Below are positions 29,650 to 32,000 of a stretch of DNA of 32,000 nucleotides, piece after piece. The stretch is from NCBI RefSeq assembly GCF_964031065.1, contig NZ_OZ034995.1, positions 150,417 through 182,416 on the forward strand, written 5' to 3'. This DNA comes from Alphaproteobacteria bacterium endosymbiont of Tiliacea citrago (GTDB lineage: Bacteria > Pseudomonadota > Alphaproteobacteria > CAJXXZ01 > DAHXLG01). Under the pieces are notes generated by a model. The model saw only the letters and a list, made by a program, of their open reading frames with translations. It was not told the DNA's origin and did not search any database. Every line of letters begins with the position of its first letter. Positions within the stretch are counted from its first letter, which is position 1. The position numbers and the translations under genes are program-made.

Positions 29650-31269
29650 ATGTCTACTTTTAGGTCTTTTTTGGAATATTATGAAAATGAAATGAATTAC
29701 CTTATAGAATCTGGTAAAGAATTAAAAAAACAATATCCTTTGATGAGTAATTTAGATTTTTCTAATGACTCTAATGATCCTGATGTTAAAAAGCTAATTG
29801 AGGGTACTGCTTTTCTAAACGCTAATTTACAAAAAAGAATTGATGAAAAAAACGTCGAGTTTTCTCAAGAATTGCTAAATAGTATTTATCCTTATTTTAA
29901 CAGGCCCACTCCTTCTGTTTCTATTTTTCAAATTAATGATTACAGAAAAGTTTGTGTTGTTCCTCAATATACTTCTATTACTTCAAAATATTCTAATTCT
30001 GATAATGAAAAATTTAATTTTCTTACCACTTCTTCTATTAGAACTTCCGCTTTTGAAGTTGTTGATATAAAAAAAACTTCATCTAATGATTTACCAAAAA
30101 ATGTTGCTAAAATCACTGATACAGCTATTGAAATTTTTTTACATCGTTTGTTTGATGAAACCGAAAAAGAAATTGTTTTTTATATAAATAAAATGGAACA
30201 TTCTGCTTGTTTAATTTATGAATCACTTTTATCTTTTTTTAAAGATCAGCCGACTCCCGTTTTTGAAAACTCTGAACAAATTGGTGAGCTTGATTTTGCT
30301 GATGACCAAATGATTATGCCTTTTTTGAAAAATGAAAATAATTGCTATAAATCTGTTATCGAATTTAATGTTTTTAAAGAAAAATTCTTATTTTTTAAAG
30401 TTAAGCTTAATAAAGCACCTTATAAATCTATTCAAATTCCTATTCGTAACAACAAAAGCATTAATGTTTCTAAAAACAGCTTTTTATTGAACTGCGTTGT
30501 TGGCGTTAATTTAGTTGAAAAAATTTCTGATCCTATTAATATTACTCACAAAAAATTTAGATATAAACTTTTTATTAAAAACAACACTGATATTTATTCT
30601 ATTTTTAATCTTAGAAATTTAAATGATCCTGATCAAAAATTCATTAATTATTTTTCCTTAGATTTTCCTAACAAAACCGAAAAAGATGTTTTATGGTATT
30701 ATAAAAAAGATAACAATATTAATTCTTCTACTTTTTTATATTTTTTTGATGATTCTATGGAGCCTAAAACAATTTTTGCTAAAATGCTTTGCACTCAAAA
30801 TAACGCTAATGAAATTATTGCTGATAATGAAGAGTGGAATGTTAATTACTATAATTTAAAAGCTAGTAACCTTAAAAAACCAACTAAATATTTTTCTAAC
30901 TCTAATTATTCTGATGCTCAAAGAAAACTAATTGGTCACTTAAACATTAATTATTTTGGTTTAGATAGTGATAATACACTTCAAAAATTAAAAGAATTAT
31001 TTCATATTTATTCTAATTATTCCTCTTCTTATCATTTTTTGAATTCTATTTCTGATATTAAATTTGAAAACAAAATGATTCCTTTCAACGGCTTTATGCT
31101 TCCTAAGGTTTTTATAACTTTAACATTAGACTCTGAACCAAAAGCTTTTTTGCTTGCTAGGGTTATTTCTAAATTAATAAAATCAACTATTCCTATCAAT
31201 AAAAAAGTTAGTTTAACTTTAATTAAAAGTGAAAATGGTGAAATTTGGAAAGAATGGGATCTTAACTAA
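29650..31269 (+). CDS. tssF: type VI secretion system baseplate protein TssF (ImpG/VasA family)
   Basis: The N-terminus FLEYYENEMNYLIESGKELKKQYPLMSNLDFSNDSNDPDVKKLIEGTAFLNANLQKRIDEKNVEFSQELLNSIYPYFNRPTPSVS follows the TssF consensus (YY..EL.YLR..G.EFA..yP..A..L....DP.VERLLEGFAFL.AR...KLDD..PE.T..LL..L.P.YLRP.PS). The next gene is tssG. Confidence 0.85.
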   Translation: MSTFRSFLEYYENEMNYLIESGKELKKQYPLMSNLDFSNDSNDPDVKKLIEGTAFLNANLQKRIDEKNVEFSQELLNSIYPYFNRPTPSVSIFQINDYRKVCVVPQYTSITSKYSNSDNEKFNFLTTSSIRTSAFEVVDIKKTSSNDLPKNVAKITDTAIEIFLHRLFDETEKEIVFYINKMEHSACLIYESLLSFFKDQPTPVFENSEQIGELDFADDQMIMPFLKNENNCYKSVIEFNVFKEKFLFFKVKLNKAPYKSIQIPIRNNKSINVSKNSFLLNCVVGVNLVEKISDPINITHKKFRYKLFIKNNTDIYSIFNLRNLNDPDQKFINYFSLDFPNKTEKDVLWYYKKDNNINSSTFLYFFDDSMEPKTIFAKMLCTQNNANEIIADNEEWNVNYYNLKASNLKKPTKYFSNSNYSDAQRKLIGHLNINYFGLDSDNTLQKLKELFHIYSNYSSSYHFLNSISDIKFENKMIPFNGFMLPKVFITLTLDSEPKAFLLARVISKLIKSTIPINKKVSLTLIKSENGEIWKEWDLN

Positions 31270-31280
31270 GGAGAATTAAA

Positions 31281-32000
31281 ATGAACAATAACGCTTTACA
31301 CAATCTTTATCAATCTTTACTTGATAAACCTTATCATTTTTCTTTTTTTCAAGCTTGTTTTTTGCTTGAAAAAATTCATCAAGATAAACACAAATTTGCT
31401 TCTGGCTTTGCTTTTTCTGAGCCTATAAGGCTTGTTCCTTATATACATGCCTCTACTCCTCATAGTTCTTGTATTAAATTTAATTCACTTCGAAATACTT
31501 TTCATATTAATTCTCCTGCTTTAATTGGTTTTAATGGTGTTTTACCTTCTTTTTACGCTGAAACTATTTTTTTTCAAGAAAAGCAAAATAATTTTTATTT
31601 TTCTGATTTTTTTAATATTTTTCATCATCGATATTATTCTTTAAAATATAAATTGGAAAAAAAATACACTCAAACATTACAAAATAGAGAAAAAGCTTTT
31701 TCTGAGGCTTTTAATATTTGTGGTTTAAGTAATTTTAGGTATAAAAAACAATTTACTCCTTTTTTATCTGTTTTAACAATGAAGAACAAATCTAAAGAAG
31801 GTTTGAAAAATTTATTAGAAGGTTTGCTTAAAATTAATATTGATATTTGTGAATTTCAAGAGAAATGGTTTGATATTCCTAAAAAACATCAATTAAAAAT
31901 TGATCGCTCTCCTTTAGTTAACAAAGCCCTTGGTTCTCAGACTAAGGTTCATTTTGCTTCAATAAAAATTATATTTTGGTTTGAAAATTTTGAAAAATAT
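31281..32000 (+). CDS. tssG: type VI secretion system baseplate protein TssG (ImpH/VasB family), 3' end outside the window
   Basis: This ORF is not in the ORF track because it is open to the window edge. I translated it by hand from the ATG at 31281, with AAGGAG 8 nt upstream. YHFSFFQACFLLE, ALIGFNGVLPSFYAE and FFNIFHHRYYSLKYK match the TssG motifs (fdFFqA.RLLE, lGL.G..GpLP..yte, FLDiFnHR..sLfYrAW). Confidence 0.8.
   Translation, partial: MNNNALHNLYQSLLDKPYHFSFFQACFLLEKIHQDKHKFASGFAFSEPIRLVPYIHASTPHSSCIKFNSLRNTFHINSPALIGFNGVLPSFYAETIFFQEKQNNFYFSDFFNIFHHRYYSLKYKLEKKYTQTLQNREKAFSEAFNICGLSNFRYKKQFTPFLSVLTMKNKSKEGLKNLLEGLLKINIDICEFQEKWFDIPKKHQLKIDRSPLVNKALGSQTKVHFASIKIIFWFENFEKY

Follow-up and report, generated by a model that had tools for sequence, protein, structure and literature searches.

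An isolated tssF–tssG pair beside cysS in the 0.52-Mb genome of an alphaproteobacterial endosymbiont of a moth

Why should two baseplate genes of a type VI secretion system (T6SS) stand by themselves beside a cysteinyl-tRNA synthetase gene (cysS), with no tssE upstream, in a genome of only 523,818 bp (0.52 Mb)? The genome belongs to the Alphaproteobacteria bacterium endosymbiont of Tiliacea citrago, a noctuid moth. The stretch that we analyzed, referred to here as the window, comprises 32,000 nucleotides (nt) and corresponds to positions 150,417 to 182,416 of the forward strand of contig NZ_OZ034995.1 (assembly GCF_964031065.1). A first reading made from the letters alone (the sequence-only reading) had recognized tssF and tssG at the right edge of the window and proposed a modified T6SS. 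Our analysis indicates that the pair is probably a baseplate module, inherited vertically and under selection, that belongs to a dispersed and reduced T6SS, the other parts of which would be encoded elsewhere in the genome. The two genes are as follows.

29650..31269, + strand: tssF, T6SS baseplate wedge subunit; intact open reading frame (ORF) of 539 amino acids (aa)
31281..32000, + strand: tssG, T6SS baseplate wedge subunit; ATG at 31281, with 240 of 295 codons inside the window

The identity of both proteins was examined with sequence profiles and a structure prediction. TssF matches the Pfam family T6SS_TssF (PF05947) with 214.2 bits (E 4.4e-63; cut-off 25), and the match spans residues 6–537 of the protein and positions 4–602 of the 608 in the profile. 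TssG is cut by the window end at residue 240; its visible part matches T6SS_TssG (PF06996) with 105.5 bits (E 4.3e-30). The complete 295-aa TssG of the same genome reaches 133.3 bits over profile positions 2–303 of 304 (cut-off 24.6). These Pfam scores lie far above chance level for both proteins. A profile of the clade to which the window TssF belongs (described below) finds the solved TssF of enteroaggregative Escherichia coli (EAEC; PDB IDs: 6GIY, 6GJ1, and 6N38) at E 3e-24.

The AlphaFold2 model of the 539-aa TssF has a mean predicted local distance difference test score (pLDDT) of 70.7 and a predicted template modeling score (pTM) of 0.69, with low confidence in the N-terminal ~70 residues and in residues 323–344. 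Its best matches are chains H and I of 6N38, which are the TssF chains in the cryo-electron microscopy structure of TssK–TssF–TssG (E 2.6e-28, template modeling (TM) score 0.66). Wedge proteins of phages and of extracellular contractile injection systems (eCIS) follow at ranks 4–17 with TM scores of 0.18–0.28. The T4 gp6/gp7 core, the Streptomyces contractile injection system, and the antifeeding prophage and Photorhabdus virulence cassette (AFP/PVC) share a distant common fold of the wedge core with TssF. This is a much weaker match than that to TssF itself, and the sequence profiles assign the window ORFs specifically to the T6SS families. The profiles, the sequence match to solved structures, and the predicted TssF fold together confirm that the two ORFs are TssF and TssG, as had been proposed from their N-terminal motifs. 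Both names are already in use: the TssF is identical to RefSeq entry WP_342262172.1, which was named TssF by the Prokaryotic Genome Annotation Pipeline (PGAP) despite a score under the equivalog level, and TssG is likewise named TssG by NCBI RefSeq.

TssF is shorter than its comparators (539 vs 587–640 aa), in line with the earlier remark on its length. The difference is made up of 12 deletions of 3–7 residues each, distributed along the protein and amounting to ~66 alignment columns; no domain is missing. The shortening looks like loop trimming, not domain loss. The richness in N, K, F, and S that was remarked on first also holds: together with I and Y, these residues account for 52% of TssF and 50% of TssG. 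Judged from its sequence, TssF is best described as a divergent, shortened member of its family.

The arrangement is found in other genomes as well. Six relatives were obtained, all of them assembled contigs from other samples, with TssF proteins 36–70% identical to that of the window. (The homology search that gave them is word-based, and the same search missed the 26%-identical TssF of Ca. Finniella.) These contigs were inspected from ~10 kb upstream of tssF to as far as 4.6 kb downstream of it. A cysS on the minus strand is followed by tssF and tssG on the plus strand in all six. The order that they share consists of the S10 operon, a gene for a haloacid dehalogenase (HAD) hydrolase, a gene for a helix-turn-helix (HTH) regulator, recF, cysS (−), and tssF and tssG (+). 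On the minus strand, dnaB then follows in L001, L002, and L005, which are all three contigs that reach that far. Both tssF and tssG are intact throughout (TssG 282–304 aa). The cysS neighbor carries the tRNA-synt_1e domain in every relative, and the cysS product of the window is 57–65% identical to its orthologues. No other T6SS gene was found in the inspected stretches. The closest relative, L001 (TssF 70% identical), comes from a cat-flea metagenome (SRR23478486), a sample in which trypanosomatids were present too.

The clade, made up of endosymbiont-like bacteria whose genomes are AT-rich, evolves very fast, with S10 proteins 41–73% and L2 proteins 60–80% identical among its members, while gene order is almost perfectly kept. 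Synteny within the clade is broken in a single place, in L004, its most divergent member. Here two extra ORFs (123 aa and 373 aa; 6950..8585, − strand) without a family match lie between recF and cysS.

Constraint on the pair was assessed by comparing the window with L001, that is, the bacteria from the moth and the flea. The synonymous divergence (dS) is saturated in this comparison, so only the nonsynonymous divergence (dN) was used.

TssF: identity 70%, dN 0.19
TssG, first 240 aa: identity 57%, dN 0.33
cysS: identity 65%, dN 0.26
recF: identity 56%, dN 0.36
S10: identity 73%, dN 0.18
L3: identity 71%, dN 0.20

TssF is as constrained as the ribosomal protein L3, and it is clearly among the more constrained proteins of the neighborhood. 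For the pair as a whole, the constraint equals that on the neighboring housekeeping genes.

This bears on the possibility that the rest of the T6SS was lost during genome reduction and that tssF and tssG are non-functional leftovers heading for deletion. The genome is extremely reduced, no third T6SS gene is seen in the 32-kb window or in the inspected stretches of the relatives, and both proteins score under the NCBIfam equivalog cut-offs (TssG as a fragment), all of which would suit a relic. However, both ORFs are intact in seven genomes whose TssF proteins diverge down to 36% identity, the dN of TssF is as low as that of L3 and lies under those of cysS and recF, and the shortening of TssF consists solely of small loop deletions that keep the reading frame. 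Useless DNA is usually removed quickly from genomes of this size, which also counts against leftovers. We regard decay of this kind as improbable.

The surroundings of the pair are as follows.

27114..28085, + strand: recF, further left of cysS
28181..29521, − strand: cysS, the divergent left neighbor; 446-aa ORF
29522..29649, no strand: divergent spacer between cysS and tssF; 128 bp, 14.8% GC
29612..29626, + strand: AT-rich motif TTAATGAATTTTTAA, a candidate promoter element found by alignment, 24–38 nt 5' of the tssF ATG
31270..31273, + strand: GGAG ribosome-binding site of tssG, as read from the sequence, 7 nt 5' of the ATG

The spacer has the extent that was first given for it, and its 128 bp contain no ORF and no tssE. 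A search of it for the sigma-54 element TGGCAC-N5-TTGCW with up to two mismatches gave no match, which agrees with the earlier inspection by eye. When five clade members are aligned, the invariant columns cluster at TTAATGAATTTTTAA, and the rest of the spacer is unalignable. This is weak evidence for a promoter element in a region that is very AT-rich as a whole. Two start sites of tssF are called in the protein collection, ATG 29650 (539 aa) and TTG 29671 (532 aa). We favor ATG 29650 because TssF residues 1–7 are conserved across the clade (M-x-F-R/K-S-F-L). The gap from the tssF stop codon to the tssG ATG is 11 nt in the window genome, and the two genes overlap by 4–16 nt in the relatives.

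Apart from the pair, the window carries housekeeping genes, as the sequence-only reading had stated of this very reduced setting: the S10/spc/alpha ribosomal operons, secE, adk, rpoA, the atp operon, ndk, fmt, and a gene for a ComM-like Mg-chelatase ATPase. A Pfam scan of the window ORFs outside the ribosomal operons, together with six ribosomal/RpoA ORFs, revealed no gp25/TssE or other T6SS family besides TssF and TssG. Only these two were matched when the whole window was searched by tblastn with 14 canonical T6SS proteins.

Canonical loci have a different layout. In Acidobacteriota, Desulfobacterota, and other loci, and on a Yersinia plasmid, the order is tssB-tssC-hcp-gp25(tssE)-tssF-tssG-vgrG/clpV. 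The window pair resembles the canonical T6SS-i (EAEC Sci-1, 6N38/6GIY; Yersinia plasmid, L041) in its protein families, in the predicted fold of TssF, and in the position of tssG directly after tssF. In T6SS-i, gp25/tssE directly precedes tssF, and the 18-kb block that contains them also holds tssBC, hcp, vgrG, tssAJKLM, and clpV. The window pair, by contrast, has no tssE adjacent and stands alone, and its proteins are 22–25% identical to their canonical counterparts.

The nearest named TssF proteins are those of Ca. Finniella inopinata and of Ca. Odyssella metagenome-assembled genomes (MAGs), next to unnamed alphaproteobacterial MAGs. They were found by scanning species-representative genomes with the clade alignment, and the identity is 26–29%. 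The tssF (603 aa) and tssG (337 aa) of the Finniella/Odyssella-type loci are also an isolated pair, with no tssE, tssBC, or tssK near them. The TssF of the window differs from theirs by this low identity and by being ~65 residues shorter. The flanks differ as well. Finniella-type loci have a conserved 820-aa ORF upstream, a gene for a Sel1-repeat protein downstream, and a vgrG-plus-MORN gene pair ~8 kb off, whereas the window clade has cysS and, where the contigs reach it, dnaB.

The upstream ORF of the Finniella/Odyssella-type loci deserves a comment of its own. An ORF of ~800–820 aa without a Pfam family lies directly upstream of tssF in every one of these loci, with 40–97% identity: L010 (7449..9911, + strand), L007 (1569..3947), and L008, L009, L011, L012, L014, L018, L028, and L031. 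The protein begins with a hydrophobic N-terminus and contains long coiled-coil-like stretches. A GDGMCGEHS ... GHYD pattern, noted by eye, is reminiscent of cysteine-protease/OTU motifs. The protein may be a T6SS-linked effector or accessory protein, and it is not present in the clade of the window.

Published Holosporales genomes provide the closest parallel. Their T6SS core genes, described in three families, are distributed over four or more loci and are transcribed, and [tssG-tssF] is a locus of its own (PMC8163844). Other loci are [tssB-tssC-hcp], [tssK-L-M-A], and [ywqK-vgrG], and tssE is present elsewhere (PMC8163844). A T6SS is conserved in nearly all Holosporineae, the smallest genomes included (PMC11909080), and a modified T6SS is kept in diplonemid endosymbionts with genomes of 605–632 kb (10.1101/719211). 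The window resembles the Holosporales with a dispersed T6SS (Bodocaedibacteraceae, Paracaedibacteraceae, Caedimonadaceae; Ca. Cytomitobacter, Ca. Nesciobacter) in three respects: the isolated two-gene tssF–tssG locus without tssE, tssBC, or tssK beside it, the occurrence of the pair in a very small endosymbiont genome, a kind of genome in which Holosporales retain such systems, and the nearest named TssF sequences, which come from this group. It differs from the diplonemid symbionts in genome size (0.52 Mb vs 0.6 Mb or more) and from the Holosporales cases found in protists in that the sources of the window clade are insects (the moth and the cat-flea metagenome).

The missing tssE is explained by this already known dispersed layout. 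It had been singled out as an abrupt start of the cluster. The observation itself stands, but it is not peculiar to this genome: the arrangement is conserved across the clade and agrees with the published Holosporales layout, and it is no anomaly. The suggestion that a reduced endosymbiont of the Holosporales type carries a modified T6SS is in line with the nearest named TssF, the 0.52-Mb genome, and the published retention of such systems.

TssF and TssG might instead be kept for a task other than building a contractile T6SS, such as scaffolding or a part in a different and unrecognized injection device; this would also account for the strong selection on the pair. The idea could draw on Holosporales-type systems, which reportedly have no detectable tube (Hcp) or outer-membrane (TssJ) components. 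On the other hand, TssF agrees in fold with the T6SS wedge subunit over its full length, and eCIS and phage gp6-like proteins reach TM scores of 0.28 at most. Hcp and TssJ are small, fast-evolving, and easily missed, and one Holosporales genome has candidates for both. We know of no precedent for such a co-opted TssF or TssG, and we consider this explanation unlikely.

The GC content matches that of the neighboring genes, and GC content and synteny argue for vertical inheritance. The GC content of tssF is 0.244, that of recF 0.23, and the window mean is 0.287; GC at third codon positions (GC3) is 0.12–0.16 in the pair, equal to or slightly under the 0.15–0.21 of its neighbors. A search of plasmids for a T6SS like that of Ca. 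Sneabacter, which is plasmid-borne (10.1101/719211), gave only ordinary proteobacterial matches with 21–25% identity. Recent horizontal acquisition of the pair, with insertion beside cysS, would account for both the abrupt start and the lack of tssE, but we judge it very improbable. T6SS genes do move horizontally, as the Sneabacter case shows, and unrelated housekeeping genes flank the pair, but the insertion point is common to every relative found, down to 36% TssF identity (so that any acquisition predates the clade), GC and GC3 agree with the neighbors, the window shows no flanking repeats, integrase, or tRNA, and the divergence of TssF tracks that of the neighboring housekeeping genes. 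Taken together, low dN, small in-frame deletions, matching GC, and the lack of flanking mobile features speak against a decaying relic as well as against a recent island.

Several points weigh against an inherited and working module of a dispersed T6SS. Only two of the ~13 core T6SS genes are visible in the window, and we infer the complete apparatus in this 0.52-Mb genome. The NCBIfam scores are under the equivalog cut-offs: TssF reaches 193.4 bits against TIGR03359 (E 8e-57; cut-off 260.3), and the 240-aa TssG fragment 92.7 bits against TIGR03347 (E 2e-26; cut-off 143.3). Matches in a sigma-70 scan were no more numerous than in shuffled sequence, none of them fell within the spacer, and the scan identified no promoter. 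The published Holosporales systems reportedly have no recognizable Hcp or TssJ (10.1101/719211, PMC11909080), so even a 'complete' Holosporales set may function differently from a canonical T6SS; Hcp-like and TssJ-like candidates are described in one Holosporales genome (PMC8163844).

The placement of the bacterium adds to these points. NCBI taxonomy lists it among unclassified Alphaproteobacteria, and a comparable entry, from the hoverfly Pipizella viduata, stands beside it. The AtpD of the window, identical to a protein recorded for the Tiliacea citrago endosymbiont, only loosely matches Holosporales/Rhodospirillales-like sequences, one 'Holosporales bacterium' among them. A neighbor-joining tree of TssF, an analysis proposed along with the original observation, recovers the clade at 100% bootstrap, but the branch that leads to it is long and lies at the midpoint root, and the tree supports no particular sister group. 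The TssF and AtpD matches point to membership in the Holosporales, and they are suggestive only. Hepatincolaceae were considered as the lineage and rejected; they are arthropod-associated but reported to be without a T6SS. In the literature we found no description of a Tiliacea citrago endosymbiont, and the moth genome note is silent on the bacterium.

How might the pair contribute to a secretion system? In characterized systems, two TssF and one TssG form the wedge, to which a TssK trimer is bound. The VgrG hub is ringed by six such wedges, which, with TssE, start the polymerization of sheath and tube; the baseplate docks to TssJLM. Under the dispersed-module reading, tssF and tssG would form a two-gene operon transcribed from the AT-rich spacer that they share with cysS, and the promoters of both cysS and tssF presumably lie in its 128 bp. 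Translation of tssG would start from its own GGAG site in the window genome, and by overlap coupling in the relatives. TssF and TssG may then assemble with parts from other loci (tssBC, tssKLMA, vgrG, and tssE, following the published Holosporales layout). The resulting reduced T6SS would be directed at the host cell or at competing bacteria. That no tssE lies upstream would reflect an old dispersal of T6SS genes in the lineage; the cluster would be neither truncated nor recently inserted.

Other features of the window were also inspected. An ORF between secE and the HTH gene (26025..26798, − strand, 257 aa) had been read as a GH24 protein. Its lysozyme signal is sub-threshold (PF00959 Phage_lysozyme, 14.5 bits vs a cut-off of 22.3, E 0.047; PHROG endolysin, E 0.017). 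The same slot holds a 254-aa ORF without a Pfam match in L001 and only a 66-aa ORF in L002. An orphan ORF on the plus strand (1973..2947, 324 aa) has no Pfam, NCBIfam, or PHROG match. It splits the atp operon, which is on the opposite strand, between atpC (1391..1744, −) and atpD (3037..4572, −). These two genes lie side by side in the 604-kb relative L042, which has the same ndk | atpHAGDC | fmt synteny. Both ORFs had been raised as possible T6SS cargo; with neither family support nor linkage, we dropped them as candidates.

The ndk ORF (7499..8074, + strand, TTG start, 191 aa) overlaps tRNA-Thr(GGT) at 7557..7631 on the same strand. The real ndk start is probably just 3' of the tRNA, because the NDK domain begins only at residue 55. 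The product of the HTH gene (25198..25935, − strand; 245 aa) carries HTH_3 at its N-terminus and a weak Peptidase_S24 signal at its C-terminus, and it resembles LexA or a phage repressor. This regulator is at the same position in all relatives, and its retention is notable in a 0.52-Mb genome.

The layout of the locus and the names of the proteins are already known. What is new here is the lineage, which is insect-associated and very fast-evolving and has a 0.52-Mb genome. That an undescribed insect-associated clade (moth, flea, possibly hoverfly) with genomes of ~0.5 Mb keeps a working, stripped-down T6SS is a tentative proposal, and we hold it as a possibility and not as the expected outcome. 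If it is true, a ~0.5-Mb member of this clade would be the smallest genome known with a T6SS. Should tssE, hcp, or tssJ be truly absent, the system would be a natural minimal contractile secretion machine, showing which parts are dispensable. If the rest of the apparatus is present, the retention of T6SS would extend below the 0.6-Mb diplonemid symbionts, and its range from protist hosts to bacteria found in insects. The compact, loop-trimmed TssF/TssG pair would then be available for the study of a minimal baseplate, and the finding would support the T6SS as the key host-interaction device of this endosymbiont radiation.

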